Part shown: positions 3,801 through 41,509 of the stretch, piece after piece
How the letters are laid out: the number at the start of each line of letters is the position of its first letter
Numbering within the stretch: the first letter of the stretch is position 1
Assembly (NCBI GenBank): GCA_049999805.1
Contig: JBNGIO010005929.1
Coordinates: 1 to 57,039, forward strand
Reading direction: 5' to 3'
DNA from: Folioceros fuciformis
Lineage: Eukaryota
Length of the DNA stretch: 57,039 bases
Position numbers and translations under genes: made by a program
The notes under the pieces: generated by a model
The model's input: the letters and a program-made list of their open reading frames with translations, nothing else
Told to the model about the DNA's origin: nothing
The model's database searches: none

Positions 3801-6800
3801 AACACCTTCAAACTGACTGTTATCAAACTCGCAGAAATAGGTGCCAGAAGCCAACTTTTCAAGCAATCTGGAGGAGGAAAAACGAGGTCATAGACAGACG
3901 GTAAAATACCACATGGGGCATACGATAGGCCATTGCAGTGACTAAGACTTCTGCAGATGCGAATGAGGATGCTGCTTTAGGCCTGCAAGACATCCAAAAA
4001 CAGACAGTTAAACATTTTCGATTTCAACAAGTGCCGCACTGGGTCGGGTAACCAGCTGAAACAAGCACGCATTATTTTTGCTCACATACTACAGAACGAC
4101 AAAGTGCTCTTAAAGTGCAAGTCTACAGCAAAACGAACAAGAATCAAAGCACTGCACCTGAAATCTCTAACCCTTCTTCCTCGCAACTCAAACACCCCAA
4201 GAGAACCATTTACCAACGCAAAAGCAAAGCTCTCGGCAGTTTCATCAGGCACAGCATCTGATGGTGCACAGTGGGTCAAAAGTGGGCACTAGAGGGACAG
4301 AAAGGAACAAGAGACTCTAAGACGTACAAGTGCATAAAATTTGCTCATCCACGAGATAGCAAACAGACCTGCTCCAGTACTCGGTGCTCCAGGGCTAGAT
4401 GGAGCATTAGCAGCGGCAACTGTAGATGCAACGGTTGGCCGCTCACGGTAAGTGAGTGAGACTCTGCGGCCTGAGGTTGTGCCACCTGTGGTGGATGGGG
4501 CCTTTGGTGCTGGAGGAAGGGCCCATTCCATCACAGTGAAAGGGAGCGCCAAAGATCGAAGCTAAACAGAATAAACTGGTTCAGGAATACATATCCGAAG
4601 AGGCAAGCCACTGAGAAGTTCAGCAAGGAAAAAACACCGTTATTCAGCAGGAAAGAGCTGATTGGACGGAGGCATGGATCCATGTCAGCCTACCATCTGT
4701 GGCGTCCTTGTCATGGCCCACACCTCAGCTGGTGCTTCTCGAAACAAGATCAGCAGATACCTGCCCTATCGCAGACATATAATACGAGAAAGAATTGATA
4801 CACATAGCGCCTAAACAGATTCTTGCCACCCAACATGTGACAAAAGAAGTTAATCAAACCACCTGTACCAAGATTGCAACAAAATCTACAGTTCTCTACC
4901 TTCCAGAAGGAGACGTCCGTAAAGCACGCATTGGTGCACGCTCAGGCTTCAGCAAAACTCGAAAAGCTTTGCTTTGCCCACTCCGTACACACGTTACCAT
5001 TAGCTTATTGATGAATCCACCACCCTTACCTTTCACCTGCAAAATCGAACACCCCCATATTTCAATTTGTAGGGCATTGCGTCCTGCAAGCAGTGAATCA
5101 CAGTTTTGATCCTGCAGCACATGTGCACGAAGAGCATCAGAGATCTTTTTTAACGTAACCTCAGTATAGGAGAAAGACACAAGCCGGGAGTTCCCCAGCC
5201 ACCGAACACCCCGCACGATGGTGGTGTTGTGCACAGCAAACGAGGCTGTTATCGCATTTGCCGCTGGGTCCACTAACTCTAGGGTCCCTGCTTGAGTAGC
5301 CAATGCTACAAGGGGTGCTGCTACTGCCCCAGCATTAGAACCACCTGAGCCATAGAAATAATGGTCGTGTGAGAAGGCGTTTTGGATCAGCTGTGAAGCA
5401 CAACAACTCAACTGGATGTTTCAACAAGCTCTGGGTTTACCAGGAGTTGTGGCAAGGAGGGAAGGCACCGGTACTGCCAAGGTGGTTATTGCAGAAGCCA
5501 ACAGATGTAGCTGGCCTGTCAGCTCCAGCTATTGAGAAGATCAGATAATTGTGAGAAAGGAGCAAACTAAGTAGTGCTGTAGGATTACCCAGTTATAAGT
5601 CCTGAAGGCCTACGACATTGAACAAGAGCAAATTCTGCATTGAAGAAAGACAACGTTTCCAACCACACCTTGAGCACTGGATCAGGACCAGAAGAAGAAC
5701 CACTGCCATCCTGCTTATTTTGCTGCCCGGTCCCCTCACTTGATTGTGCAGAAGACGCAACAAGATCCTTCCCACTACCAGTCCTTCGGACTTGTGCACT
5801 CTGCGGCATAGTGGCAGTCATGGCCCAATGCCATAGTCGTCCATCATCGGAAATCGACACGAACGTAACTTGGCTGATGATGCTCGTTTCATCTGTTTGA
5901 CCCGATGTAGCAGAGTCCAGTTTGTCGTCCGATGTATCAGCAGGAGATTTCCCTGAGGGAGACGAGGCATCGCCAGTGCGTGGGTGCATAAGCTTCAGCA
6001 CAGGCACACCGTCAGGAGCGTTGACATTCTGCACGCGAAGCTGTACTGGGCAATTAGCCACAGCAAGCACAACTGGAGCGGGAACCGACGTGCCCAAAGA
6101 AGGCATCAGGGACTCCATCTGGCAGAGCGAAAAGACTTGCCTCGCCCTGCAAGCGAGGACACACAAACATTTAGTGGGGACACCATCTCAGAATAACCCC
6201 ACCAACTGAGCACGTGAAAGCTTTCACAGCAGCGATCATACAGAACTCCGTCTAAGGACAGGCAAGCCAAGTCAGCCCATCAGGTCCTTACTCTTTCCTT
6301 CTCCAGGCACTGATCTTTCCATCAACGTGGACGCAGTAGAGGATCTCATCATCCACAATTGCGAACAAGTCAAGGAGCTTCCCACATCCTCGTGGCATTC
6401 CCGTAGAACCGAGTGGCAAGAAGAAGTGCAGATCAAAGACGATGATCTCCCTTGCATGCATGATGTAAAGGAGACCTCTCGTCCTCTCAGAGAACAAACA
6501 GCGTACATATACACCGGGAGTCGATGCCAAAGCCGGGGCTCCAGACGACGAGGACCCCGAGCTAGAACCACCCGAGGTACTCGCATCCTTGCCTCCTCTG
6601 TCCTTTTCACNNNNNNNNNNNNNNNNNNNNNNNNNNNNNNNNNNNNNNNNNNNNNNNNNNNNNNNNNNNNNNNNNNNNNNNNNNNNNNNNNNNNNNNNNN
6701 NNNNNNNNNNCCCACACCACCCCCAGTACTCCGCTCCTCGATCGTCCCAAGAGGATATTGCTTCACAGACACCTCCCCATCAGCCGGAGCGTTGAGAAAA

Positions 6801-7387
6801 ATAGACAGCAGCAACCCCTTCAACCCCAAAACGCAGATCTGCCGGGCATCCAGCGGGTCGCACCGCATACAGCCTAAAACCTCTGGAGCAGCATCGAACT
6901 TCCACAGCGAGCGCCCAGACCCTGGATCCCACAGCACGACGAGCGAAGGGCCATGAATGGCCATCACAAGCCAGGGATGCCCGAACACCCACCGAATGTC
7001 CTGTATCCCGAGCTTGTTCTTCTCCTGGTCGACCCCGAGCCAGGTCACCACTTCCCCCAACCCGACATCCCAAATGGCGATCCTGCCCTGCCTGTCCCCC
7101 GCGGCCACCCTCGTATGCATCGAAACTCCATCGTGCGTCAGATCCCTGGCAATCCCCTCCGGCGTCCACTGCACGGCGGTGACGTAAGCGGCGGGCGCAG
7201 AGGGCGTGCTGCGGGGGGGAGGCATCGGCAGCACCGTCACCAGCTGCATGGAGCGGACATCAATCACCACCACAGAGCTCCCGGCCGCGTACGCCAGCAG
7301 CCCGTGCGAGCTGCAGTGAGCCGCGCCACCGTTCTCCTTGCTCGCCGGCGCGGCCAGCCCTGCCCCGGCGCCTAGGCTGCCAGTCAT
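876..7387 (-). CDS. WDR11: WD40-repeat protein, WDR11 homologue (multi-exon)
   Basis: Successive minus-strand exons with GT/GC-AG borders: GLLAYAAGSSVVVID..AAGDRQGRIAIWD; VRGVRWLGNSRLVSFS; MGDRLGNIRWWDVTTG; LVLELDWLP; ERISWHDKL..KRIHE; AVTLLLATPP..FYVDALRAVALASAVS; LPDTAAMFLLAC. ATG 7387, TAG 876-878. Exon 1 contains an assembly gap. Confidence 0.9.
6611..6710. other. Assembly gap (100 N) inside WDR11 exon 1
   Basis: Run of exactly 100 N. The apparent frame change across it is a placeholder artefact. Confidence 0.99.
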
Positions 7388-8474
7388 CCTTCCAGACCCG
7401 GATTCCGATTCCGCCTACCGCCGTGGCTCATAGAATCGCGCTGATCCTGAGACGCGGACTCGGCGAGCTCGGATTCGCCCTCTCCTCTCGCCTGACGCTC
7501 CGTGCAGACGACATTGAAGGATTCAGGAACAAGAATCTGCGCGCCGGGCAGTTGCGAGAACCCGCAATCCCAAGCGTCTGGCTTGGATCCCGTCTCCTCC
7601 CGATGGCCAAAGCTGGGAAGCCGGAGGTTGCTCGGAAACTGCCGCGAACCTGCCAGCAAGGCCCGCTGTTCATCATCCCCTCACCAGGCTTCCTGGCTCA
7701 CTTCATCCTGCTCCTAGGAGGCTCGAATCCACGGCTTTCCTGAGATCCAGAGAGACAGAGGCCAGCCAGCTCCACCGTTACGCTCGACGCGTACCTTGCC
7801 CTAGGACGCTCCTTGAGGGACCCGGAGTCTCCATGATTGCACGGCTTACCAATTCCATTTTCCCTCTGCCATTTTCTTCCCTCCCGCAAAAATTCCAAGT
7901 GTAGCGCGGAATTGAATTGGTCAAGGCAAGGTGCTTTCCCGACACACGTGTGTCCCAGCCCAGTCCCAGGCCCAGGAGATGGAAAAACAAACGTCCTAGT
8001 CTCCGCCAAAGAAGGGTACAGTACAGTACTGTTTGTAACACCCGACCATACGTTTTAGGATATCTAGGTTACAAAGAAATTACAATACACCACAACAGAC
8101 TGGACATCATCAGGCGGAATAACGTCAAACCACATTGGACAGTTAACACGATTCTCTCCTATCGTTGGCATATGAAGTTTTCTTTCCGACCCATGTTGCG
8201 TACCAACTTCTTACAGGACGGAATCCTCGCACCACCCAGCAGGGTTGACTGCAGTATAGCCACAAATGACCTACCCTGACATCTAGCTTCACCACCATCC
8301 TAATAGTAAGTAAACTACCACAATGCCCATACACAGCTAGACTCCTACACTCGTACACCTCTGCAACGTATAAATTAATTTCGACAAATTCCATACTTCC
8401 AAAGAATGATGAAGAACACGTACACGCCTTCGGGACCTCCAACGGTCCACCTGCCGATCTGAGACACGCCGGCC

Positions 8475-11681: not shown

Positions 11682-14600
11682 CTATACTTTGGGCAGCTCC
11701 TTATTTAGGTTCCTTACGGTTTCGTAAATTCGGGCACTGTGACGGTGTCTTGAGTCGCGTACCATGAACGAATGTACTTCCTGTTCATGCTCGATCCAGC
11801 TTTGCCCAGGCCTCTTCCACGTACCCCAGAGTCGTCTCAACTCATCCACCTCCTCGGCTGACTCCCACATTCCAGCATGGGCGTAGATATTCGTCATGAG
11901 TACATACGGCGCAGCTTCTTTGGGCTGTAGCTCCAAGGCAGAATCAAACGCTTGTCTTGCGAGGGAGATGTTGCCATGTTTGCAGCAGGCACCAAGTAAG
12001 GACAACCACATGGACCAATTAGGAGGCATGGGCATTTCCGATAACAAAGAAGCTGCCTCGCTCAGCAGACCTGCCCGACTGAGGAGGTCGAGCATGCTCG
12101 CATAGTGCTCTATTGCAGGAGTGACGTTGTACTCTTTGGTCATCAGTTTGAAGTAATCAAGGCCCTGATCCACCCTGCCAGCGTGGCTGCAGGCAGACAG
12201 GAGTGAGACGAAAGTGATTCCATCTGGTTGGAGGCCATCCTTTTGCATCTGCAAGAAGCATGCCACTGTCATGTCTGCGTCCCCTTGCTGCGCATATCCG
12301 GTGACCAAAGCATTCCAGGACACCACATCGTGTTGGGGCATTGAGTCGAACACTGCGTGCGCATCCAACATGCTCCCGCAGTTGGCATAGGCGTGTATGA
12401 GGGCAGTTGCCAGAGCGAGGCTCGATGTGCATCCACCAGCAGCAATATCACGATGAATTTGCACACACATATCCAGGGCTCCAGTATTGCTGCAAGCTTT
12501 AAGTATGCCAATGAATGTGAACTCATCTGGGCTTACACCTTCTAACTCCATCTGTCGAAAGAGCAGCCCAACCATGTCGTCCTGATTCTGCTCGGCGTAT
12601 GCAGCAATCAGGGCATTCCAACATACCACGTTCCTCTCAGGCAGCCTGTCAAAAGCGTGTTGGGCATCGACCACGCTTCCACACTTGGCATATGCATTGA
12701 TGAGTCTGCCAGCAACAGACACATCTAACTTGTTGCCCCAACGACTTGCTTCGGCATGAATGGCCTTCCCCCGTTGAAGAGATTCAACCTTGAAGGCTTG
12801 CCCATCTATTTTGGTGCTCTCTTCCCTTTCTGAAAGGCTGCTGCATGCCTGGAGGACACCTGCGAAGGTGCGTTCGTCTGGCCAGAAGCCGTCATCCAGC
12901 ATTTGAGCAAAAAGGTCCAGAGCGATCCCTTCTTGATCCTGCTGGGCGTAACCTGTGATCAAGACATTAAATGATACCACATTACGTTGCAACAGCCTGT
13001 CAAATACAAATTGTGCATCTTCGATGCTGTTACACTTGGCATACAAACTGATGAGGCTGTTACCCACGAACGAGTCATTTTCGTAAGCCCTCCCAGCAGC
13101 TTCTGAATGGATGGTTTTCCCCTTTTGAAGTGATCCTACTTTGACAAACCGCCCATCTATCAGCACCCCATCATCCAAATTGGTTAGGCTCGCAAACGCT
13201 TTCAGCACAGAAGCAAATGTCCTGTCATTGGGTTCAAGGCCTTGATCCAGCATAACGCTAGATAGCTCCAACACTTCCTTTGCCTGTCCGGCATGGGCAT
13301 ATCCTGCAAGCAACGCATTCCAAGACACCACGTTCTGCTGGGACAATTGGTCAAACAACTGGTGCGCTTGGGAGATGCTCCCACACTTCGCATAAATGCT
13401 CACGAGGGTATTACCTACAAAGATGTCTGATTCAAAACCTCTTGATGCGGCTTCAGCATGTAGTTCCTTCACTCTTCGCAGCCACTCAACTTTGATGGGT
13501 TGTCCATCCAAGGAAGTGCCTTCATCCATATCTGCCATATTTCCACAAGCTTGAAGCACACTGACTATTGTCCGTTCATTTGGACTGGTTCCTTCCTTTA
13601 GCATCTGGCCGTAGCATTCTAACGCTTTCTCTCCACTAGACTGTTGAGCATACCCTGCGATCATTGCATTCCACGAAACCACATCTCGTTGGGACAATGA
13701 ATTGAACACTAACTCTGCATCTGTTAGGCTGCCGCACTTGGTGTACAAACTAACCAGCGTGTTACCAACTAAACCATCCCACCCATATCCCTGCACAACA
13801 GCTTCTGCATGGATTGCCTTGCCCCTCTCCAGTGAAGTCAACCTGATACTTCGCCCCTCTACAAGCGCGCTTTCCTCCTTGCCGGCAAGGTTGCTACATG
13901 CTCTCAAGATGCTGACAAAGGTACAAGGATCTGGTTTGACATCCTCCTTTTGCATTCGGAGGAACAACATCAGGGCATTCTCGTGTTGTCCCTGCTGTAC
14001 ATACCCTGTAGACATTGCATTCCATACTAGTGTAACGTGCCGTGGCGATGCATCAAATACATGCCTTGCATGATGAATGCTACCACAGTTGGCATACATA
14101 CCAATAAGAGTGCTGTAGAATACTACAGAATTCGCGTCCATCCCTACAGTAGCGGCCGCTGCAGCAGCGGCATGTATTGCCATCCCTGTTTGAAGCGACG
14201 TCACTTTGATGGACTCCCCATCTATGGAAAGGGATTCCTCCTTCTCTGCAAGACTATTACATGCTTGAAGGGCGCCGACAAAGGTCCAGACATCTGGAAG
14301 CACAGCTTCTTCTTGCATCTGGTTATACAGTAGCAAAGCCTTCTCCGGCTGGGCCTGATGACAATAACCTGCAAGCATCGCGTTCCATGTTATTACATCG
14401 GTTTCGAACAATTCGTCGAATACATGTTGAGCATCCAAGATGGCCCCACACTTTGCATACATGCTAACAAGAGTGCTACCAACAAAGACATCTGTTGTAT
14501 AACCCCACACAGCAGCTTGAGCATGAAATGCCTTGCCCTTTTGTAAAGAGAATAGTTTGGTGGCGCAACCATTCACAAAAACTTCTTCTTCTTTGTCTGC

Positions 14601-15821
14601 AAGGCTACCACATGCTTGGAGCACACTCACAATCGTACGATCATCTGGGGCAACACCCTCCTCTAGCATATCTGCATACAGGCGCAAAGCTTTCTCTCCC
14701 TCGCCAAGTCGCGCATATGCTGCGAGCATCGCATTCCATGAAACTACATCTGGTTGCACTACTGTCTCAAACAGCTGCTGCGCATCCAAAAGGTTTCCAC
14801 ACTTTGCATAGGCACTAATGAGAGAATTAGAAACAAACACTTGGGACTGATAACCCCTGTGAACAGATTCAACATGAAGAGCCTTCACCTTTTCTAGAGA
14901 CACCAGCTTGAGGCGTCGACCATTGAGAAGCACGCCTTCCTCCATCTCTGCCATACCAGCACAAGCTTTCACCATGGTGACCAGGGTGCGATCATCTGGA
15001 GAGATACCCTCCTCCTGCATCTTGTGGTAGAGGTGCCAAGCCTTGTCCCCCTCTTGCCGTAGACAATATCCTGCAAGCATTGCATTCCATGAGACCACAC
15101 TCCGCTGTGACATTCTGTCAAACACATGGCGGGCATTTACAATGCTTCCACACTTCACATACATATCGATTAGTGCGGTAGAGACATACAAATCAGTCTC
15201 AAATCTGTATCTCACAGCCTGGGCATGAATCCGAGTGCCTTGTTCCAAGTCTGCCAAGCTGGAGCAAGCTTTGAGCAAGGGGACGAAGGTGTATTTGTCT
15301 GGCTGCATTCCTCCTTCTTGCATCTTCCAGTACAAACTGAGAGCCTCCTGAGCCTGCCCAGATTTGGTGTAGGAAGAAATGAGGGCATTCCAGGAGAAGG
15401 CAGTTCGGTACGACAAACGATTGAACAGCTGGCGGGCATCCTGAAGCCCACCACACATGAGCAGCGCCTTCACACTCGATTCCCCCAAAAATACATCATA
15501 CCCATATCCATTGTCTGCCAGATGGGCATGCACTCGCTTTGCCTCAGCCAATGACTTGTTCCTTACGCAAGCCTGCAAGAGATGCCAGTACAGGTTTCCT
15601 GAAGGCATCTGGTTCTGCTTGTCCATCCACTCCAACGCATCATGCAGCTGGCCTGTGTCGCAGAGCTGTCTCAGCTCAAAGGTCCCGTCCCCTGTAACAT
15701 CATTGTGTCGCCAGCCGCAGGTCACGGCCACTCCGTTCAGCCTTGTAATCTCTGTCTCTCTCCCGGAAGACGCGTAGCTGGCCACGGACTGCCAGCCCGC
15801 CAGGGTGGATAGTCGCAGCAT
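11682..15821 (-). CDS. Very long PLS-class PPR protein with E1-E2-E+ end and no DYW domain (organellar RNA-editing specificity factor)
   Basis: Single long ORF of P-L-S triplets (VVSWNAM..GY; TFV..L.AC; LVSMYAKCG), P2-L2-S2 (TFVSLLSACSHAG; EHYASMLDLLSRAG), E motifs and PG box KRPGQSWIE, then a stop before any HxE/CxxC. First true ATG is 15821 (MLRLSTLAGW..., presequence-like); the track start 15845 is GTG. Confidence 0.93.
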   Translation of the reverse strand: MLRLSTLAGWQSVASYASSGRETEITRLNGVAVTCGWRHNDVTGDGTFELRQLCDTGQLHDALEWMDKQNQMPSGNLYWHLLQACVRNKSLAEAKRVHAHLADNGYGYDVFLGESSVKALLMCGGLQDARQLFNRLSYRTAFSWNALISSYTKSGQAQEALSLYWKMQEGGMQPDKYTFVPLLKACSSLADLEQGTRIHAQAVRYRFETDLYVSTALIDMYVKCGSIVNARHVFDRMSQRSVVSWNAMLAGYCLRQEGDKAWHLYHKMQEEGISPDDRTLVTMVKACAGMAEMEEGVLLNGRRLKLVSLEKVKALHVESVHRGYQSQVFVSNSLISAYAKCGNLLDAQQLFETVVQPDVVSWNAMLAAYARLGEGEKALRLYADMLEEGVAPDDRTIVSVLQACGSLADKEEEVFVNGCATKLFSLQKGKAFHAQAAVWGYTTDVFVGSTLVSMYAKCGAILDAQHVFDELFETDVITWNAMLAGYCHQAQPEKALLLYNQMQEEAVLPDVWTFVGALQACNSLAEKEESLSIDGESIKVTSLQTGMAIHAAAAAAATVGMDANSVVFYSTLIGMYANCGSIHHARHVFDASPRHVTLVWNAMSTGYVQQGQHENALMLFLRMQKEDVKPDPCTFVSILRACSNLAGKEESALVEGRSIRLTSLERGKAIHAEAVVQGYGWDGLVGNTLVSLYTKCGSLTDAELVFNSLSQRDVVSWNAMIAGYAQQSSGEKALECYGQMLKEGTSPNERTIVSVLQACGNMADMDEGTSLDGQPIKVEWLRRVKELHAEAASRGFESDIFVGNTLVSIYAKCGSISQAHQLFDQLSQQNVVSWNALLAGYAHAGQAKEVLELSSVMLDQGLEPNDRTFASVLKAFASLTNLDDGVLIDGRFVKVGSLQKGKTIHSEAAGRAYENDSFVGNSLISLYAKCNSIEDAQFVFDRLLQRNVVSFNVLITGYAQQDQEGIALDLFAQMLDDGFWPDERTFAGVLQACSSLSEREESTKIDGQAFKVESLQRGKAIHAEASRWGNKLDVSVAGRLINAYAKCGSVVDAQHAFDRLPERNVVCWNALIAAYAEQNQDDMVGLLFRQMELEGVSPDEFTFIGILKACSNTGALDMCVQIHRDIAAGGCTSSLALATALIHAYANCGSMLDAHAVFDSMPQHDVVSWNALVTGYAQQGDADMTVACFLQMQKDGLQPDGITFVSLLSACSHAGRVDQGLDYFKLMTKEYNVTPAIEHYASMLDLLSRAGLLSEAASLLSEMPMPPNWSMWLSLLGACCKHGNISLARQAFDSALELQPKEAAPYVLMTNIYAHAGMWESAEEVDELRRLWGTWKRPGQSWIEHEQEVHSFMVRDSRHRHSARIYETVRNLNKELPKV

Positions 15822-15913
15822 GGCATCTGCAACACTACCCTCCACAACCTTGCATGGGATGAGGCAGCTACATTATGTGCCCGTTTCTAAAACTCCTCTA
15901 CCTCATTTGATCT

Positions 15914-18244
15914 ATGTGGTGTGACTGGGCTGGATCCGCTTGTGCATATGTCTCTGCCATGCCAGTGGCCTGTGCAGAGTACACACCATGTCGCACTGTG
16001 GTCAATCTCTGCAGGGAGGGACATCTGGACAAGGCCATGCTGGTCCTACTGCGAATGGACCAACAAGGTTGCGTCCCTTCAGCTGGAATGTTCAAGACGC
16101 TTCTTCAGGCCTGTATGCAACAGAAAGCCCTTGCGCAGGCCAGGCGGGTGCAAGCTCACTTGGCAAGACATGGGCTGGAGACCGATCCATGTCTGGGCCA
16201 GCTTGTGGTGTCCACTTTGGTGAATTGTGGAGGTCTGAACTATGGGCTCCAACTGTTTCGAAGATTGCCTCACCGAACTGTTTTCTCCTGGACGGCCGTG
16301 ATTTCAGGGTATTGCAAAGCAGGAGATGGTCGTCGGGCTCTCTCCTGCTACGAGCAAATGCAACAGGAAGGAGTTCATCCTAACAACTACACGCTTGTTG
16401 CCCTGCTCAAAGCCTGCACCAGCCTGCGAGACCTAAATGAGGGCAAGCGAATGCACGCACATGCTCGGCACCATGGGTTGGAGTCCGACGTGTTTGTTGC
16501 CACAGCGTTGGTGAGTATGTATGCAAAGTGCAGGAGCTTGGAAGATGCACACCACGTCTTTAACCAGCTGTCTGACCGAAATGTAGTGTCATGGAATGCT
16601 ATCCTTGCAGCATATACACAGAATGGCCAAGGGGAACAGGCATTGAACATTTTTTGGAAGATGCAAGAAGAAGGCGGGATTCCAGATGCTCGCACCTGTG
16701 TTGCTGCCCTCCAAGCGTGTGGGATCATGGCGGAACAAGAGGAAAATGCAACTGTTGGTGGCCTTGATATAGTTAAACTGGACTCATTGCACGCGGGGAA
16801 GACAATTCATGCCCAAGCAGCTGGAAGGGGGTTGGCATGCAACATTTTTGTGAGGAATGCCTTGGTAACTATGTATGCAAGATGCGGGAGCATTGAGGAT
16901 GCCCAACGACTGTTCGATCAAACGGCAGACCGCACTGTTGTGTCCTGGAATGCATTGGTTGCAGCATATTCGCAACAGGGACAAGGACAAAAGGCCTTGC
17001 GCATCTACGCCGAGATGCAAGAGAAAGGTGTGGAGGCAGATGACCGAACGTTTGTTAGTGCTCTCCAAGCATGCGGCAGTCTTGCGGAAAGGGAGGAAAG
17101 CACAGAAGTGGATGGGCAACACATCAGAGTGGAGTCTCTGCGAAAGGGCAAGGAATTACATGAGAGAGCTTCTCGTGTTGGCTATGATGTCTTTGTTGGT
17201 AACACATTGGTTAGTATGTACGCGAAGTGTGGGAATATCAAGGATTCAGAATATGTTTTCGACAGAATGTGTCTCCGAGATGTGATGTCCTGGAAAACAA
17301 TGATTGCGGCATATGCTGAGCAGGACCAGGGAGAAAAGGCTTTGCACACCTATGGGCTAATGCAGACGGCATCTGTCCAGCCGAATGAGCCTATCTTTCA
17401 GTCGGTACTGGAAGCCTGTAGTAACATGGGACTCTTAGAGATCTGTCGCCAAACCCACCGCAAAATCATCGAGTGTGGATTAGAAGGCAGACTATCCGTG
17501 GCAAACAGTCTGATACATGCTTTTGGGAAGTGTGGCAGCATGGTAGATGCTCAGTTCGTATTTCACTCATTGGCTTCTCCTGATGTCGTGTCCTGGACTG
17601 CCCTAATCGCTGGGTACGGACGCCAGGGAAATTGTGAGGCGAGTCAGAAATGTTACGAGGATATGCTTCTGGCAGGCGTCAGGCCTAATGAAGTGACATT
17701 TCTGGCTCTTCTGGCTGCATGTGGTCATGCTGGCATGGTGGACAGAGGACTGGAGCTCTTTGTAAGCATGACCAGAGATCATGGCCTTATTGCGGGGCCG
17801 GAGCATTACGTTTCCTTGATCAATCTTCTGTGCCGTGGTGGGTTGTTCACCATAGCCGAGGGTCTGGCTGGTAAGTTGCCGATGCAGCTCGCCTTGCACG
17901 GATGGCTCTGTTTGCTTAGCGCTAGCCAGAGACACGGGAAGGTGAGTGTGGGAAGGCGTGCCTTCGACTGCGCTGTGGCTCTGGAGCCCAAACAAGCTGC
18001 GGCCTATGTCGTCATGTCGAACATCTATGCTCAGGCTGGCATGTGGGAGTGTGCACGTGAGATAGATGGCATGAGGCAAACAGCGAGAGCATGTAAGAAG
18101 CCCGGGCAGAGTTGGATCGAGCACGAAAAGGAGGTGCACACATTTCTGGTGGGGGACCAAAGGCATCAGCAAGGGAAACTGCTGTACGGACTGTTGAACG
18201 AGCTTCGTTTAATTCTGGGGCAGCGGCCAAAGCTTGGTGGATAG
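15914..18244 (+). CDS. PLS-class PPR protein with E1-E2-E+ end and no DYW domain
   Basis: P-L-S triplets, TFLALLAACGHAG, EHYVSLINLLCRGG, PG box KKPGQSWIE, stop at 18242-18244. The true start is uncertain because of an acceptor-like TGTGCAG ending near 15977. Confidence 0.92.
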   Translation: MWCDWAGSACAYVSAMPVACAEYTPCRTVVNLCREGHLDKAMLVLLRMDQQGCVPSAGMFKTLLQACMQQKALAQARRVQAHLARHGLETDPCLGQLVVSTLVNCGGLNYGLQLFRRLPHRTVFSWTAVISGYCKAGDGRRALSCYEQMQQEGVHPNNYTLVALLKACTSLRDLNEGKRMHAHARHHGLESDVFVATALVSMYAKCRSLEDAHHVFNQLSDRNVVSWNAILAAYTQNGQGEQALNIFWKMQEEGGIPDARTCVAALQACGIMAEQEENATVGGLDIVKLDSLHAGKTIHAQAAGRGLACNIFVRNALVTMYARCGSIEDAQRLFDQTADRTVVSWNALVAAYSQQGQGQKALRIYAEMQEKGVEADDRTFVSALQACGSLAEREESTEVDGQHIRVESLRKGKELHERASRVGYDVFVGNTLVSMYAKCGNIKDSEYVFDRMCLRDVMSWKTMIAAYAEQDQGEKALHTYGLMQTASVQPNEPIFQSVLEACSNMGLLEICRQTHRKIIECGLEGRLSVANSLIHAFGKCGSMVDAQFVFHSLASPDVVSWTALIAGYGRQGNCEASQKCYEDMLLAGVRPNEVTFLALLAACGHAGMVDRGLELFVSMTRDHGLIAGPEHYVSLINLLCRGGLFTIAEGLAGKLPMQLALHGWLCLLSASQRHGKVSVGRRAFDCAVALEPKQAAAYVVMSNIYAQAGMWECAREIDGMRQTARACKKPGQSWIEHEKEVHTFLVGDQRHQQGKLLYGLLNELRLILGQRPKLGG

Positions 18245-18304: not shown

Positions 18305-21300
18305 TCAGTGGTGATCACCACACGAGCAAAACCCATTCACAAAATGGTGAACACGGTGGGCATCTCTGACTATTATTTCTCGCCTTTCAATCTTGGACAT
18401 CATCTTAGTGCCAGTGTGGCAGTCATTGCACATTCGCAGATTTTTGGTCACCACCAAAGTGGTACCAGCTGGAGTGTTCAACAGGCCGTAAGCCAATGCT
18501 AGTTTCTCAGCATGTCCACAAAGAGCATCTTCCTTCTCCGTCTGCCCCAACTCCACGTTTGGCATCCGCCCTCCTTCTCCATGTAGAAGTGCATTCACAC
18601 TCCTTAGCTTGGAGGATATGTCATCCCTTTCATCCCCCACAGTAAACGTCTGCACCTTGTTGTCAACCTCGATCCAAGCCCTTGCAGACTTCTTGCAAGC
18701 AGCCCCAGACTTCCTTAGACTTTCGATCGATTCTGCATCCTTGGACCGATCTGCGTTCGTATAAATGTCTTGCATGAGTGCGTATGGAGCACCTTTCTGT
18801 GGCTCCAATGCAATAAGACGGTCGAAACATCGCCGTCCACGCTCCACGTCGCCGTGACTTCTACAGGCACCCAGCAAGGATGTCCAGCTAGCAACAGAAT
18901 CTTTAAGGGGCAACGTCTGCAACATGTGTTCTGCCTCATCTAGATGACCTGCTCGCCCCAGAAGATCAACCATGCAAGTACTATGATACACAGTGGGTGA
19001 AATGCCATGGTCGTCAACCATCATCCTGAAATAGTGCTTGCCTTCATTCACTAGCCCCTGGTGACTACATGCAACAAGAAGAGAGAGAAAAGTCCCATCG
19101 TCTGGTTCAGTACCATGGTCCTGCATTTCTTGAAAGCACTGCAAAGCACGTTGCACATCATTATGCAGGCAATAGCCATTGAGCAGAGCATTCCACGTAA
19201 CCGCAGTTTTTGTAGGCAACTTATCAAGCACTTTGCGGGCGTCCTCCAGATTGCCGCATTTTGCATACATGTCCACAATGCTGCTGCCTACCACCACATC
19301 AGCTTCCTGACATCTTTTCTGAACTTCGTAATGCAGCTCCTTTCCTTGTTGTAAAGCTCCTATGCTGGCACACGCTTTCAGAAGGCACGCTATCGTATGA
19401 TTGTTTGCTGAGGTGATCCCCTCCTGCTGCATGGACGCATAAAGGGCAAGTGCTTCGTGACCAAGCCCCTGCTGAGAACATCCATCAATCATGGCAGTCC
19501 AGGTCACTACATCCTTTGTGGGTAATCTGTCAAATACTCTTTTCGCATCCTCCAAGCTCCCACATTTTGCATACATGTCCACCAAGCTGTTACCCAGAAC
19601 CGACTCCAGTCCTTGTTCCTCTATCTGCAAATGAAGCTGCTTCCCTTGAAGGAGCTCACGTTCACTGGCACATGCTTTGAGGAGGCAGACAAATGTAACC
19701 CGGTCAGCTGCTGTGGTGCTGTCTCCCTGCATGAGTGCATACAGATCGAGGACTTCTTGACCCAGCCCATGCTGAGCATATCCTGCAAGCATGCTATTCC
19801 ATGTGACGACATCCTTGATGGGCAACTTATCGAAGACATCACGAGCATCTTTCAGGCTCCCACATTTACAATACATGTCTATCACACAGCTGCCGACAAT
19901 GTGGTTAGCTTCAAGCCCCCTTTCTTGGATATGCAAATGAAGCTCGTTCCCCTCGTTTAACGTTTGCATGCCAGCACAGGCCTTCAGCACACATACAAAC
20001 GTAATATCATTGGGCAAGGACATGCCTTCCTCCTTCATACTCTTGTAAAGCATAAGCGCTTCTTGACCAAGCCCATGCTGAACATATCCAGTGAGTAGGG
20101 CATTCCACGTTACCACATCTCTTGTTGGCATTCTGTCAAACACCCTTCTAGCATCCACTAAGCTCCCACACTTCGCATACATATCCACCAGGCTATTGCC
20201 CAAAACCAGATCAGCTTCCAGGCCCCGCTTCTCAATCATTGAATGGATCTCCTTGCCCTCATCTAGGGCACCCGTGCTAGCACATGCCTTCAACATGCAC
20301 AAAAATGTTGCATAACTGGCCGTAATACCTTCCTGCTGCATGCGTGCAAAAAGTGTAAGGGCTTGAGTACCAAGCCCCTGTTGTGCATATCCTGCAATCA
20401 TGGCATTCCATGTCACCACATTTTTGTTTGGCAGCTTTTCAAACACTCGGTAGGCATCCTCCATGCTTCCACATTTTGCATACAGGTTCACCAGGCTGGT
20501 GCCAACAAATACACTCGGTTGAAGGCCACTTCCCAAAATATCCGCGTGAACTTGCTTGCCGGATGGTAGATCTGCAACTGTGGCACACGCCTTAAGGACT
20601 GCCACATATGTGTGGCTGTTGGGGTCCACACTTGAGTGTCTCATCTCCTGATACAGTTTGATCGCCTGCATGGGCTGACCATGCTCGGTGTGTGCTGATA
20701 TAATGGAATGCCAAATGCATGAGTTAGCCACAGCCAGCTTTGACAGGACATTGGTTGCTTCCTGCAACCTCCCATGAGAGGTATACATGCGGATAATGTG
20801 GCTGGCCAAAATTATATTGTTCTCATATCCACACTTCAGAGTTAGAGCATGAACGCGTCTGCCAACACTCAAATCCTTCTGTGCAATACAATGCTTGAGG
20901 GTTGAGCAAATGCTAGACTCGGGAACGATTGATCTTTGCTGCACTAGGAGCTCCAAGGCTTCGACAGTCGGAACCAGCTGCTTTTCTCCAGATTCCTTTT
21001 TCCAGATCCCCAGTCTCAGATTCCCTTCCGACCTACAAGATTACGACGCTGTCAAACAAGTGACTGGGGTTCAGACAAGACATGATGCTCAAGCACTAGA
21101 TGCTGACTACTTGTCGCTCGAAACAACACAACTGCGGAAATGTGTCCAGTTAAGGGAAGTCGAACCTCTGAGAGACCTCATGGACTTTCACTCCTCGCTG
21201 CAAATTTTCCTTCATCCATGCATCCTGTGAGTCATACAATGCATCCTCAGTGGTGCTGTACATGAAGTTCCTACACTCGACCTTGGTCTGCAGCGTTGAT

Positions 21301-22047
21301 AATTTTAAAGTTTGCATGATTAATTGCACCACAAGACCCTCCCTTTGTCGTGTTTCTGGTGACCATCAACTGATGGGCAAAGATAGCAACTGAAGGCCGG
21401 AGAATTATTACCTTGTTGAACGTGCCGTCCCACAAGGAGGTAGGATTGCCCAGAAAATTCTGCCACAAGACCTGCCGACCGCTGGGTTCCACTGCATGCC
21501 AACTTCACGATCACACTCTGAGAAGCTTTTCCACGGCAAGTCCACCAGGAGAAACAGAAAACAACTCCGAAACACTAGAAACGCAGAAACAGTAACTGAC
21601 CAGGTCCTGCTGCGGATTTCCGTCCATCTCCTAACCCCACCGAGGCATGTTGTGCGAGACCAAGCCACCTTGGTGGCCAGTCTTGATGGCTGCTGCTCCG
21701 CTTGGATGTCTGCAACATGACATTCATTTACCAACTCTCCCAACCCGAACCCTGGCCTAGAATGCATAGCAAACGCTGGCCAGAAGCCAAGGCCAGAGCA
21801 ATGTTCACTACCTCATCCGACCTGGATGCCCACCACAGAGAAGGATCGGCCAGAAATCTCTTCCCACAGTCTCCATGCTGCACCTGATTGCAAGCTGATC
21901 CAGCTGCCAATGACACCCACCATCAGCAGCAACCCATAGCAAGCAACAAAGTTAACCAAATGAAGGTCAGCACTTACGGATGCCAGGATTTCCTTGCTCA
22001 GCTGCCAGGCGCAACGGTGACACACGCCTCAACTTGGCCTTCTTCAT
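18305..22047 (-). CDS. PLS-class PPR protein with C-terminal DYW:KP-type deaminase-like domain (putative U-to-C editing factor), with spliced N-terminal exons
   Basis: Main exon 21032-18305 holds about 20 PLS motifs, E1/E2, then KKSARAWIEV...LCGHAEKLALAYGLLNTP...KNLRMCNDCH...RDAHRVHHF..GFCSCGDHH*. Upstream GT-AG exons 21883-21812, 21709-21601, 21491-21412 and 21287-21166 join in phase. Exon 22099-21978 (ATG 22047) joins only with a 1-bp frameshift near 21863-21865, so the 5' end is uncertain; the next in-frame ATG is 21263. Confidence 0.88.
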
Positions 22048-22424
22048 TCGGGCTGCACCAGAATTGCCAACCCACCATCCCGCTACATGTCCTCCTCGCC
22101 TACAGGCCCGAATCAAGGTACCACAATGAAGACCCTTGCACAGATCGATCACAAAGCAACAGAGCAGAACAGGGCCGAACGATTTGACTCACCTTCGGAT
22201 GAATTTGGGATTGGTGCAGTGCTTTCGTGACGTGACTTTCTCACGACCTAATGGGACGTCTTTAGGGCCGAGTACTTCATGTTGGGGATCTATGTCAGCT
22301 GGGACAGAATGAGAGTTGGGGCGGAATTGGAATTTTGAGGGTTACTGCTCATCCCACATGGAACCCATCAGAGGACGCATGCAAATTTGGAGCTCTCAGG
22401 CGAGCAGCGTTGGGTTGGGCTGAA

Positions 22425-23195
22425 ATGGGTCAAACATTACGCAAAGTCGTGGGATCTGTACCTCCTCGTGCCTCTCCCCGTGCTGCTCCACCGGCCTCAC
22501 TCCCTGCCAGCCGGGAGCCTGTGCAAGCGAGTCCAGCATCTGTCAAGCCAGGTTGGGACTCCAGACTCTTCCGCTGAGAGCATTCTCCGAGGTCTGAATT
22601 ATGGCTTGCTGACGGTGGTCTGGTCTGGTCCTCCTAATCGTGCAGGTAAGGCTGTGGAACGCGAGCAGAACCTGGGTGAATGGGATCCCAAGAACCCAAA
22701 TTACCAAACCCTGGTGCACCAGGTGGCCGGGGCGATCTCTACCAGGCCGGGAGGGTTTCAGGAGATGGGTCCGGTAGAGTGACTCCAATTCTGCGTCGTC
22801 TTGGTCTTAAGCAAGCTTGATTCCGGACTCACTGGGATTTGGTGTTTCGATTCTTGTAGGCCAAATTGACAGATCGGGAGCGTACCAGGCCGATGCCCAA
22901 GGATCGGCACACTTCTGTTGCGTCGGGGCCTGATGAGGAGCAGGTAGTAAAGGCTGGCACTCTGAACGTCGCCCAGCTGAAGCAGCTATTTGCTCTGTAC
23001 AGCAGAGAATTGGAGGGCCAGGAGAAGCCAGTGGACGCGCAAAGCTTGGCCGAGAAGTTTACTGTGGATGTCATTCTGCTGAGGAATGTTTTGAAGCATT
23101 TTTGGCTCCATGCAGCTCACCGTCGACGGCTGCAACTGGAAGATCCCGAGCAGAGGCAGGAGGTGAGAGAACGTCAAGCTGCTAGTGGGGCATAG
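22425..23195 (+). CDS. Small conserved protein, NDUFAF4-like (putative complex I assembly factor)
   Basis: Three in-phase exons 22425-22551, 22646-22773 and 22860-23195. N-terminal MGQ; Y..LV.QVAGAISTRPGG..EMG; RPMPKDR; GTLNVAQLKQLF...LAEKFTVDV.LLRNVLKHF resemble the plant family related to NDUFAF4 (from memory). Confidence 0.6.
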
Positions 23196-24774
23196 TTTTG
23201 TCCATTAACGTCAGTTGCCATGAACCTCTGTCCATCAGGAAAGCATAAACAACCCTCCGGAAGTAGTTTCTCGTCCTACATGAGTTGGTAGCGAGCCACT
23301 GGTTTTGTAGAACAATGCGCAAAGTAGGTAGCACAGACGCCATTCTAACAATATACAAGAACATTGCATGTATCTCAGTTGGTGCTATTGTTCGATTAGG
23401 CCTGGCCTGCGCGGTGGCTTTCCTGAGATATCCTCTTCTGGGTGACCTTTCTGTTCAAGCTCCAGACAGCTTGTCAAACCGGGCTCTTCTCATACGGACA
23501 CCCTTCACATTTTGTACAGTAGTGTGTGTTGCGGCCTGCAGGTGCTTTATGAGAAGCCATTGAGAATGGCGTAGTAGATTGTTGTCCACATCTGACCTGT
23601 CGTCAAGGAGATCTGACAACTTGAGACATCGAGGTAGGCACCTCGAAAGAAATACTACACGTACGTACCTTTGGTGCTGTGATCACAGGTTCCCAGTAAA
23701 GCCCCTCCGTGTCTGCATCAGCATTATCCCGTCGTCTGTACTGATGCGAAGTGTTACCATGGCTCCACAAGCCTCTGATCCAAGTTAGTTGAGCTGTTCC
23801 AGGTGATGCCGCAGCGAGAAGGATTACCATAGAGAAGGAAATGAATTTGCATCTATCCTGATGCCCCATGCTTACACGGCATGATGCTGGGCTGACAGGC
23901 CCCATCCCCCGCTCCGCGGTTTCGATTTCGTCATGCTCTACAACTGGTGCGCAGAATATGTTTCATGAGGCCTCACCATACGACTTCAGCCTCATCCCTC
24001 ATCTCTCGTGGGAAGAAGAAGCCTGACAGCTCTCACTCATGGACAATACTTGCCAACACTCCAAGCATCGGAATCTCGCCCCGCCTCGCCTCCTGAGGTA
24101 AGCTACACGGAAACTCTGATTGCTGTTCACACTTGCGGACCCAGAAAGGACATGCTCCCTCGTGAAACATGTCCTCGAGGCTGGACGATGCAGACTGCAC
24201 TCCTGTTTCACGATTCACGCTCCGTGTAGAAATTGTCTTGTCTCGATTCGGCCATGCCAGCTAATCTTTGCAAGCGACCCATGAGGATCCCAGTCAAACA
24301 GGAGGTCACCGCAAGTACATGCGCGAAGTTATGAAGCGGCCGTAGATGATCCGAATATGCCTCGCTCCCCGGATGGTTGCACGCAGCACGATCCCCATCA
24401 GCTCAACGCGGTTGGCATTGGCGGAGCGAAAGTGCAGCCTAGCAAGGGCCGGGCCGACTGGCAATGCGCATCAATTAGGGAAGAAAACAGTAAAGCTCTG
24501 GTCGTCCAGTCTAGGTAACAGAAAACAGGCTCGCCACGCCCTGCCATCCCCACGCTCCGCTCCAATCGGACTCGACTCCCGCCTCCCCCGGTTCTTTCTT
24601 GCTCTCCTCTCCCACGCAGTTGCCTGCGCCTTTTGTGGATCTTGTTTATAGCCCGGCCTCCAGCTCTCCGATTGTGAGGAGACGACGCGCTTCCGGAATC
24701 GGATTCGTGAGTTCCCGGAGGCGGGCGCTGGAACACCGATTGCGGATTGATTGAGCTGTGAGCAGGGAGAGACG

Positions 24775-25398
24775 ATGGCAAGCACGACGGCAAACAATGG
24801 CGCTTCCAAGGCGCCAAGGAGGCTCCTGTCGTCCATGTACAGGAGATCGGTGGCAGCGCATCCGTGGCACGATCTGGAATTGGGGCCGGGAGCTCCGGAG
24901 GTGTTCAACACAGTGGTGGAGATCAGCAAGGGGAGCAAGGTGAAGTACGAATTGGACAAGAAGACAGGGCTGATCAAGGTGGATCGCGTGCTCTACTCCT
25001 CGGTGGTGTACCCGCATAACTACGGCTTCATCCCGCGCACGCTCTGCGAGGACAACGATCCCATGGACGTGCTGGTGCTGATGCAGGAGCCCGTGCTTCC
25101 GGGATGCTTCCTGCGCGCCAGAGCCATCGGGCTCATGCCTATGATAGACCAAGGTGAGAAGGATGACAAGATCATTGCAGTCTGTGCAGACGATCCCGAG
25201 TTCCGCGTCTACGAGGACATCAACCAGCTGCCCCCTCACCGCCTGGCGGAGATCCGCCGCTTTTTTGAGGACTACAAGAAGAACGAGAACAAAGAAGTTT
25301 CTGTCGAAAATTTTCTTCCAAAACAAAGTGCCATTGACGCAATCAGACACTCCATGGATTTGTACTCTTCCTACGTGCTGGAGACCCTGAGACAGTAG
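24775..25398 (+). CDS. PPA: Soluble inorganic pyrophosphatase (family I), intronless CDS
   Basis: [48 protein letters not shown] (active-site signature), [27 protein letters not shown] 24775, TAG 25396-25398. Confidence 0.97.
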
Positions 25399-30419: not shown

Positions 30420-30936
30420 GAAGAAGAGGAGAGGAAGAGGGAGAGGGAAGTGGTGAGGAGGAAGGTTTTGTGGTGTGGCGTGGAGTGAAATAGAGTGGAG
30501 TAGAAGGAAACAGAGCAGGAGAACTGTGAGGCTTGCCGTTTGTCTTCTCAGTTTGGAGCGGCCTGGTGTTGTTGTATGCGGTGTGCATCCTTCGGTTGTA
30601 TATGAGACACAGAGCGGGGAGTAATCTGCGCGATTTGAGCGCCGGTAGCGCGTCCACGGAGCGGGGGACGGGAGAGGATGCAGTTGCGCGGCTGGGAGAG
30701 TCGGCAGAGCTGAATTGGAGGCACTGGAGGTTTCGTGGTCGAGCGTAGAGAAGCTGAGGTTGAGCGGGAGGCGGAGCGGAAGCTGAGGCGGTAGCCTCGT
30801 CGCACGGGCTGGGGCCTGGTTTGGGAGGAGGAGGAGCAGGTGGTGGAAGCCTCCGGCTCTGTTGATCCTGGCATCGCGTGTCTTGTTCAGGCGCAAGTCG
30901 GCCTTGCTGATCCGGCACAGGGACAGGTTGGATATA

Positions 30937-32055
30937 ATGGTGTGGACGCTGCGGCTATGGGGAATGGCTTCCGCAATTATAATGTCAGTCATGTTGTTGC
31001 CGTCGATGCAGTCCTGGTCCCCTGCGGAGGCCAGGTCCACACGGTTTGGGGGTGATGACTTCGCATCTTTGCTGCATGATCCGGCTCTAAGATCGCCGGG
31101 GGACATTCCTGTTTTCCGCGAGGCTCCGGCTTTTCGCAACGGCAAGGAGTGTTTTATTCTGGAGCAGTCCAGTGAGGTGGCCGGTGTTTGTGACATCAGT
31201 GCTGTGCATATTGCTATGACGCTTGATGTGGCTTACTTGCGGGGTTCCATGGCTGCCATTCTGTCCATCTTGCAGCACGCAGGGTGTCCGGAAAACTTTG
31301 TCTTCCATTTTTTGGTGTCGGACAGGGATGCAGAGCTGAGAACTGTTGTGCGCTCTACGTTCCCGTTTCTCCGTTTCAAGCTGTATCATTTTGATGAAAA
31401 TCTGGTGAAGTCGCGTATCTCGTCTTCTGTGCGGGAGGCCCTGGAGCAGCCACTCAACTATGCACGCAACTATCTCGCGGACATCCTGGAGCCTTGCGTG
31501 CAGAGAGTGATCTATTTGGACTCGGATTTGGTTGTGGTGGATGACATTGCTAAGCTTTGGGGAACTAGCTTGGGCTCATACGCCATCGGAGCGCCCGAGT
31601 ATTGCCACGCCAACTTCAGCAAGTATTTCACTGCGGCGTTCTGGGCGGACGAGAACCTGGCCAGGGCTTTCAACGGGCGCACCCCTTGCTACTTCAATAC
31701 GGGAGTGATGGTTATTGACTTGGCCAAGTGGCGACGGGAGAGTTATACCAGGTTGATTGAGGTTTGGATGGACATTCAGAAGGAGAAGCGCATCTACGAC
31801 TTGGGGTCACTGCCCCCGTTTTTGCTTGTGTTTGCTGGCAGTGTGGAGCCCATTGAGCACAGGTGGAACCAGCATGGTCTTGGGGGGGACAATCTAGAAG
31901 GCCGCTGCCGTGCGCTACATCCGGGCCCGGTTAGCTTGCTGCATTGGAGCGGGAAGGGAAAGCCTTGGATGCGATTGGACGCTAATAGACCCTGCCCGTT
32001 GGATAGCCTGTGGGCACCCTATGATCTATTATTGACCGCCGTGGCCTACCAGTGA
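30937..32055 (+). CDS. GATL: Galacturonosyltransferase-like protein (GT8 family), intronless
   Basis: Hydrophobic N-terminus; [53 protein letters not shown] (DxD); [49 protein letters not shown]. First ATG 30937 (track start 30862 is TTG). Confidence 0.96.
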
Positions 32056-41409: not shown

Positions 41410-41509
41410 NNNNNNNNNNNNNNNNNNNNNNNNNNNNNNNNNNNNNNNNNNNNNNNNNNNNNNNNNNNNNNNNNNNNNNNNNNNNNNNNNNNNNNNNNNN
41501 NNNNNNNNN
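41410..41509. other. Assembly gap (100 N)
   Basis: Run of exactly 100 N. Confidence 0.99.

Follow-up and report, generated by a model that had tools for sequence, protein, structure and literature searches.

The PDF motif is treated in the literature as the hallmark of the OSB genome-maintenance proteins, which comprise an OB-fold (SSB) domain followed by a C-terminal PDF part and contain no PPR repeats. Their motif is the same ~50-residue motif as that of the PPR-linked copies considered here and varies in copy number from one to several (PMC13393729, in the part of its text available), and the PDF motif of OSB1 is sufficient for binding of single-stranded DNA (ssDNA; PMC6963530, in the part available, crediting Zaegel 2006). 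The DYW:KP class of RNA-editing factors has HAE in place of HSE and a changed PG box, has two hornwort variants, DRH and GRP, and is restricted to hornworts, lycophytes, and ferns; synthetic PPR-DYW:KP proteins, comprising a PLS array, C-terminal domains, and Trx and His tags, with no PDF motif listed, carry out U-to-C editing in bacteria and in human cells (all from the accessible part of PMC9478123). Here, we describe a minus-strand gene in a 57,039-nucleotide (nt) window (the whole stretch of DNA analyzed, contig JBNGIO010005929.1 of Folioceros fuciformis) in which short upstream exons carrying remnants of two PDF motifs are spliced to an exon encoding a PPR array and a DYW:KP-class domain. 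In contrast to the OSB proteins, the gene has its PDF copies N-terminal to the PPR array, has no OB fold, and has both copies eroded. We consider it likely to be a KP-class gene of a PDF-bearing PPR lineage in which both PDF copies have decayed into relics in the N-terminal leader. The motif and the enzyme class are each known; their combination seems not to have been remarked on, and the window gene is a decayed example of it.

The C-terminal part of the gene is encoded by a 911-codon stop-free frame at 18305–21040 on the minus strand, in which a PLS-type PPR array is followed by an E motif and a DYW deaminase domain, with Pfam matches to PPR (E = 1.2e-99, 15 stretches), E_motif (7.4e-8), and DYW_deaminase (3.2e-33). 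Specifically, the active site reads ...CGHAEKLA..., with HAE for HSE, and is accompanied by ...TKNLRMCNDCH...; the PG box is altered to KKSARAWIEV, with KS rather than KP; and the protein ends GDHH. The nearest relatives end in DRH or GRP; the 32 that share CGHAEKLA...RMC are 52–70% identical over the last 142 residues, and relatives in that identity range have KP, KV, or KL in the box. In comparison with the hornwort-type DYW:KP proteins of the DRH and GRP variants, which are candidate U-to-C editing enzymes, the window gene shares the PLS array, the E motif, HAE, an altered PG box, and an ending other than DYW (...DHH, near DRH), but differs in having KS in the box. The gene most likely encodes a nuclear, organelle-targeted PLS-class PPR-E-DYW editing factor of the DYW:KP class, in a DRH-like subgroup, with its catalytic and RNA-recognition portions in the main exon. 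The class, the short introns, and the close gene spacing would fit a hornwort-like genome. The PPR frame contains no ATG ahead of the first repeat, and the start of the protein must therefore lie upstream.

The transcript that supplies this start was recovered from a single public run, X1, whose kind was guessed as RNA and whose assembled contigs were placed on 20300–22500. A 3739-nt X1 contig matches the minus strand with 0 mismatches, has six GT-AG introns spliced out (21033–21165, 21225–21411, 21492–21600, 21710–21811, 21904–21977, and 22100–22192), and joins the small exons to the PPR exon. All six skipped segments begin with CT and end with AC on the plus strand, corresponding to GT..AG on the minus strand (dinucleotides re-read for five), and, because six such segments are skipped in one contig, the contig can originate only from spliced RNA. 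From 5′ to 3′, the exons on the minus strand are: e0, the 5′ leader (22193–22500, with its 3′ end at 22193 set by the contig joint and with the contig continuing past 22500); e1, which contains the start codon at 22047 (21978–22099); exon A, which carries the first ~21 residues of PDF copy 1, ...FLADPSLWWASRSDE, and ends in a phase-0 intron (21812–21903); exon B, a 36-codon linker (21601–21709); exon C, which carries the first ~20 residues of PDF copy 2, ...VLWQNFLGNPTSLWDGTFNK, and also ends in a phase-0 intron (21412–21491); exon D′, the fourth small exon as expressed, with 19 codons plus 2 bases followed by a phase-2 intron with a weak GTTCGA donor (21166–21224); and the main exon, with the PPR array, the E motif, and the DYW:KP-class domain (18305–21032, ending ...GDHH, with the stop codon at 18305–18307).

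This structure bears out most of a gene model made earlier from the sequence alone (the original prediction), in which four GT-AG exons were spliced to the PPR exon. The outer coordinates, 21166 and 22099, are both true exon ends in the contig; the intron phases of 0, 1, 0, and 2 are those observed after exons A, B, C, and D′; and every predicted joint is used save one, the acceptor of the last small exon, which lies at 21224 instead of ~21288. The peptides quoted in support of the model are likewise present on the minus strand where it had placed them: ...KRFLADPSLWWASRSDE and ...QVLWQNFLGNPTSLWDGTFNK precede GTAGTG and GTAATA, respectively, and TKVECRNFMYSTTEDALYDSQDAWMKENL... is preceded by CAG. 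The acceptor CAG at 21288–21290 is plausible and in frame, and the contigs give no depth over 21262–21409.

With the exons joined by coordinates, the spliced frame is open for 1045 codons from 22047, ~137 of which lie upstream of the PPR exon (by our estimate, the probability of such openness by chance is roughly 0.001); with the acceptor at 21288, it would be open for 1066 codons. No in-frame ATG is present upstream of 22047 in the spliced frame. Two out-of-frame upstream ATGs are present, one at 22088, with a stop directly after it, and one at 22078, opening a 26-codon upstream open reading frame that overlaps the start at 22047; these may limit translation or indicate another start. From the 5′ exon of the gene, the spliced contig continues unspliced for 2391 nt beyond 22500 into a plus-strand neighbor (frames at 22339–22782 and 22860–23195, no Pfam match), reflecting either a head-to-head overlap of transcripts or merging by the assembler. 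The contig thus merges more than one transcript, yet the splice joints are unaffected.

To search the window for PDF motifs, we built a profile from 28 PPR-linked PDF copies and ran it over 2903 six-frame stop-to-stop pieces covering the whole window. The two top-ranking pieces are 21274–21504 on the minus strand (E = 0.004, copy 2) and 21731–21922 on the minus strand (E = 0.01, copy 1), with the third at E = 2.7, in agreement with the predicted match of both first halves to the PDF motif. In the spliced protein, copy 1 scores 14.0 bits (profile positions 2–22), copy 2 scores 8.6 bits, and the whole scores 18.4 bits; in the form with the long version of exon D, the copies score 13.8 and 18.5 bits, the whole scores 29.5 bits, and copy 2 spans profile positions 1–36. 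None of 2000 shuffles of the 137-residue N-terminus reached the real profile score, and, when the second half of copy 2 alone was shuffled, 3 of 2000 reached the real 22.3 bits (shuffles 13.3 ± 1.6). The similarity on which the original prediction had been made to depend is therefore significant, both window-wide and against shuffled sequence. The predicted correspondence of introns also holds: each copy is interrupted by a phase-0 intron eight residues after its WW or LW pair. A Pfam search with the four small-exon peptides, using a Pfam that has no PDF model, gave nothing meaningful (one match, E = 0.59). Comparison of the two window copies with the first and second copy types of 24 double-PDF PPR proteins did not discriminate between the types (13.9 versus 14.8 bits and 17.4 versus 19.6 bits). 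By the profile searches and shuffles, both stretches are homologous to the OSB-type PDF motif.

The same motif precedes PPR arrays in other proteins. In particular, when the 120 best homologues of the PPR open reading frame (ORF) were examined, 24 contained the pattern W..F...P..WW, always upstream of the PPR array, in proteins of Diphasiastrum, Calypogeia, Sphagnum, and Ceratodon and in unnamed records; the full motif has the consensus WxEFFSDPSQWWDNRxxKxNxKxPDFKHKxTxEALWIxxxxNPPWVxAxLA. A profile made from 13 aligned PPR-linked PDF segments (A1) detected 1231 proteins at E ≤ 0.001 among 8000 candidates scored. When it was run over 1.84 billion cluster representatives, 1090 reached E ≤ 0.001 and 460 reached E ≤ 1e-10. 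Proteins named OSB1, OSB2, and OSB3 are among the matches of profile A1 (E = 1e-30 to 1e-58), many of them containing the SSB domain PF00436, and, since a profile derived from PPR proteins finds these proteins, the N-terminal motif of the PPR proteins is the OSB PDF motif. A search for SSB (PF00436) or an OB fold gave no match in the small exons, the PPR ORF, or the window region; the window gene, being a PPR protein without an SSB domain, thus shares its motif with the OSB proteins but is not an OSB.

In a set of 424 proteins, which is biased and in which proteins were classed as PPR by means of a crude repeat pattern, 69 PPR proteins carry the motif: 25 in single copy, 35 in two copies, and 9 in three or more. 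The motif is N-terminal in 68 of these 69, whereas in the 204 non-PPR carriers it lies mostly elsewhere, as in OSBs. Proteins of Diphasiastrum, Calypogeia, Sphagnum, Ceratodon, and Adiantum often show the arrangement, most of them with a canonical PG-type DYW domain or no DYW domain; across the PDF-bearing PPR proteins, the DYW domain, where present, is mostly of the canonical PG type ending DYW. Records of this kind, labeled "hypothetical protein" (Diphasiastrum complanatum, Calypogeia fissa, Sphagnum jensenii, Ceratodon purpureus, and Adiantum capillus-veneris), resemble the window gene in having a leader, one to three PDF motifs, and a PLS-PPR array with or without E and DYW, and in that two copies, as in the window gene, are the commonest number (35 of 69); they differ in having intact motifs and, when a DYW domain is present, one of the PG type, whereas the window copies are eroded and the window domain is KP-class.

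Intact PDF motifs also occur in the KP class itself. Three of 45 KP-like proteins have a full motif ahead of the PPR array, P0246 (E = 7e-16, DRH), P0247 (1.3e-21, GRP), and P0253 (5.9e-14, GRP), a proportion that is a lower bound because the 45 are ORFs called on contigs, many of them N-terminally incomplete; intact PDF-PPR-KP proteins, which the original prediction had called for, thus exist. Four further KP-like relatives have a partial or weak motif: P0242 (4e-4), P0045 (0.04), P0265 (0.4), and P0239 (0.9). By crude tail classes, in biased samples in which the KP ORFs may lack 5′ exons, the motif is carried by 1 of 20 HAEK KP-like, 0 of 9 HCEK, and 11 of 72 PG proteins.

Both PDF copies of the window gene are eroded. 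The observed mRNA keeps only the first ~20 residues of each copy, and several invariant positions are missing: W1 in frame in copy 1; the second W in copy 2, which has LW for WW; and D13, R15, and the PDF triplet in both. An eroded core of copy 2, in which the PDF tripeptide is now RNF and is followed by ...TTEDALY..., persists at 21225–21287 on the minus strand. These 21 codons (TKVEC...YDSQ) are intronic in the observed isoform and would be exonic only with the acceptor at 21288; copy 2 scores 8.6 bits without them and 18.5 bits when they are included. Scored by itself, exon D′ gives no profile signal, its score being reached by 1631 of 2000 shuffles. In copy 1, neither the PDF triplet nor the KHK.T.EALW core is detectable. 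The core of copy 2 remains detectable (3 of 2000 shuffles); the second half of copy 1 has left no trace. Two candidate remnants of that half were rejected: an out-of-frame SHNMPRW relic, proposed in the original prediction, has no profile match in any frame of 21492–21811 (best 0.6 bits, for an unrelated stretch), and the score of exon B read as the C-terminal half of copy 1 (from WPPRW) was reached by 232 of 2000 shuffles.

Copy 1 also bears a possible scar of an old frameshift. The LW expected to open the copy sits in another frame, 7 nt before the F codon, and deletion of any one base at 21857–21865 on the minus strand raises exon A from 15.8 to 18.4–20.5 bits, with the alignment then running from profile position 1; single-base deletions elsewhere in exon A give up to about 17.4 bits. 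This interval, obtained by deletion rescoring, marks a putative old 1-bp frameshift that places the upstream LW out of frame. In the gene as it stands, the reading frame is unbroken, being fixed by the ATG at 22047 together with the phase-1 intron that precedes exon A. The 1-bp frameshift that had been predicted near 21863–21865 is thus weakly supported as an ancient event, which is plausible, and does not correspond to a break in the frame as it now stands.

For the intact motif, an AlphaFold2 model (m52d956d099e2, from a 24-row alignment) has a pLDDT (predicted local distance difference test) of 83.8 and comprises a helix, three short strands, and a helix. The segment that survives in the window gene provides the first helix and strand of this unit, whereas the other strands come from the core that is missing. 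Foldseek against PDB gave no match at E ≤ 0.001 (best 5.9), and the highest Z from VIA-align, run over 48161 chains, was 2.6, with no solved relative identified; these negatives mean neither novelty of the fold nor absence of relatives.

Our preferred account is that the gene descends from PPR proteins in which the transit peptide was separated from the PPR array by one to three OSB-type PDF motifs, as is common among seed-free land plants, and that its coding sequence runs from 22047 via five short exons into the 2.7-kb PPR exon. Copy 1 would have lost its leading W through an old 1-bp insertion, and its second half would have disappeared; copy 2 would retain its first ~20 residues in exon C, its core persisting in the DNA and being skipped through use of the downstream acceptor. 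From the missing invariant residues and the strands that are missing from the modeled core, we infer that the relics no longer fold or bind single-stranded nucleic acid. The small exons would now contribute only a start codon, a basic leader for targeting to the organelle, and a spacer. The PDF module appears dispensable, because designer KP editors described without it are active and because several KP relatives show decay.

Several points weigh against this account. The window-wide E-values of 0.004 and 0.01 are modest, and the profile derives mostly from one lycophyte, with an effective sequence number of ~1.1. The two upstream ATGs, one with an upstream reading frame overlapping the start, leave the translation start unproven. 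The RNA support is one run guessed as RNA, and contigs are blind to isoform ratios, so that a long isoform including the core of copy 2 may exist. The proposed loss of nucleic-acid binding is deduced from absent conserved residues, and the retention of the same half of the motif in both copies could reflect selection rather than slow erosion of conserved residues.

The last point leads to the alternative that survives best, although we regard it as improbable: that the half-motifs form a functional shortened module, in which W..F...P..WW contacts nucleic acid or a partner and which would have shed its core through deletion (copy 1) or splicing (copy 2). Both copies preserve the same ~20 residues, aromatic positions included; the frame is open across all five junctions; at least one KP relative, P0242 (domain E = 4e-4), likewise keeps the first half only, with a weaker trace in P0265 (E = 0.38); and the segment forms a helix and first strand in the AlphaFold model with pLDDT 83.8. 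Neutral decay, however, would also be expected to leave the most conserved residues recognizable longest, and the invariant positions are only partly kept, with losses at W1, WW, D13/R15, and the PDF triplet. Moreover, the first strand pairs in the model with strands of the missing core, which makes the half alone unlikely to fold.

Far less probably, the small exons lie outside the PPR gene and are what is left of a separate OSB-like gene upstream of it: OSB proteins do carry PDF motifs, and the contig, which also enters the plus-strand neighbor, does merge transcripts, but the removal of intron 21033–21165 joins exon D′ to the PPR exon in phase with the frame open, the window region has no OB-fold or SSB match, and the PPR exon lacks its own start codon ahead of the first repeat. 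The separate OSB pseudogene that the original prediction had allowed for is accordingly not what the contig contains. Equally remote is a chance match in a low-information leader, for which it may be said that each piece scores only 13–15 bits and that Pfam, lacking a PDF model, is silent on the small exons, and against which stand the position of the two best of 2903 pieces in adjacent exons of a single gene, with the expected strand and order and at the site of the motif in the homologues, the shuffling results (0 of 2000 and 3 of 2000), and the shared intron position.

Within the preferred account of decay in a PDF-bearing PPR lineage, the origin of the motif differs from that first proposed, which was descent from an OSB-PDF::PPR::DYW:KP fusion. 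Of that proposal, the PDF homology and the membership of PDF and PPR exons in one gene are borne out, and intact PDF-PPR-KP proteins exist, but the architecture is not KP-specific: PDF motifs are common before the PPR arrays of lycophyte, fern, moss, and liverwort proteins with canonical PG-type DYW domains, which argues for descent from a PDF-bearing PPR lineage rather than from a KP-specific OSB fusion. Any transfer between OSB and PPR genes may have run in either direction. The module of the window gene is itself too eroded to exemplify the tethering of U-to-C editing to DNA or nascent RNA that had been envisaged for it.

More speculatively, and with the balance of probability against it, PDF may be an old and widespread accessory of PLS-class PPR editors in seed-free plants, present with both PG and KP domains in one to three copies and repeatedly lost. 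The motif would grip single-stranded RNA 5′ of the PPR footprint, or nucleoid ssDNA, in a sequence-independent manner, and would thereby couple editing to transcription or to the nucleoid; the window gene would then be a snapshot of its loss.

In full-text literature searches, no paper tied PPR proteins to the PDF motif or domain, although an earlier mention, for example in a supplement, is possible. PPR proteins are unmentioned in the available part of a 2026 study of OSB and PDF-domain evolution (PMC13393729), and a 2026 survey of editing factors has no OSB, PDF, or ssDNA in its text. The accessible portions of editing-factor papers on the KP class describe the PLS array and C-terminal domains and do not mention an N-terminal PDF module. 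The motif regarded as an OSB hallmark thus also fronts many editing-factor PPR arrays in lycophytes, ferns, mosses, and liverworts and in hornwort-type KP proteins, which raises the question of the role of an ssDNA-binding motif on an RNA editor. Intact, half-decayed, and PDF-less paralogues are natural paired material for testing that role, and the window copy, being a relic, is of value as a pointer to the architecture and as evidence of its dispensability. For annotation, the gene shows that single-exon calls can miss short 5′ exons, of which a PPR gene in these plants can have several.

Some other PDF matches were unusual in architecture or in taxonomic label. In angiosperm annotations, P0121 of Kingdonia uniflora has 13 PDF stretches in 1160 residues, P0216 of Coptis combines PDF with a kinesin motor, and P0184 of Striga is named ICR2; these are either real expansions and fusions or merged gene models. 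Two matches are labeled as lying outside land plants, P0130 of Sanguina aurantia (5 stretches, E = 3e-64) and P0207 with the eukprot prefix Skav (3 stretches, E = 2e-33), reflecting either a wider distribution or contamination. According to the part of the 2026 OSB evolution study available (PMC13393729), Chlamydomonas has no OSB gene.

The KP-class gene is one of three clustered PPR genes in the window. Two more PLS-type PPR frames with an E motif and no DYW match lie beside it, at 11682–15872 on the minus strand (1396 codons) and at 15911–18244 on the plus strand (777 codons), the latter ending 60 nt from the stop codon of the KP-class gene in a tail-to-tail arrangement; the PDF profile, run over the window, has no match near either. 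Other features of the window are a WDR11-type beta-propeller at 6272–7414 on the minus strand, a soluble inorganic pyrophosphatase at 24751–25398 on the plus strand, a family-8 glycosyltransferase at 30787–32055 on the plus strand, and two 100-base runs of N at 6611–6710 and 41410–41509.

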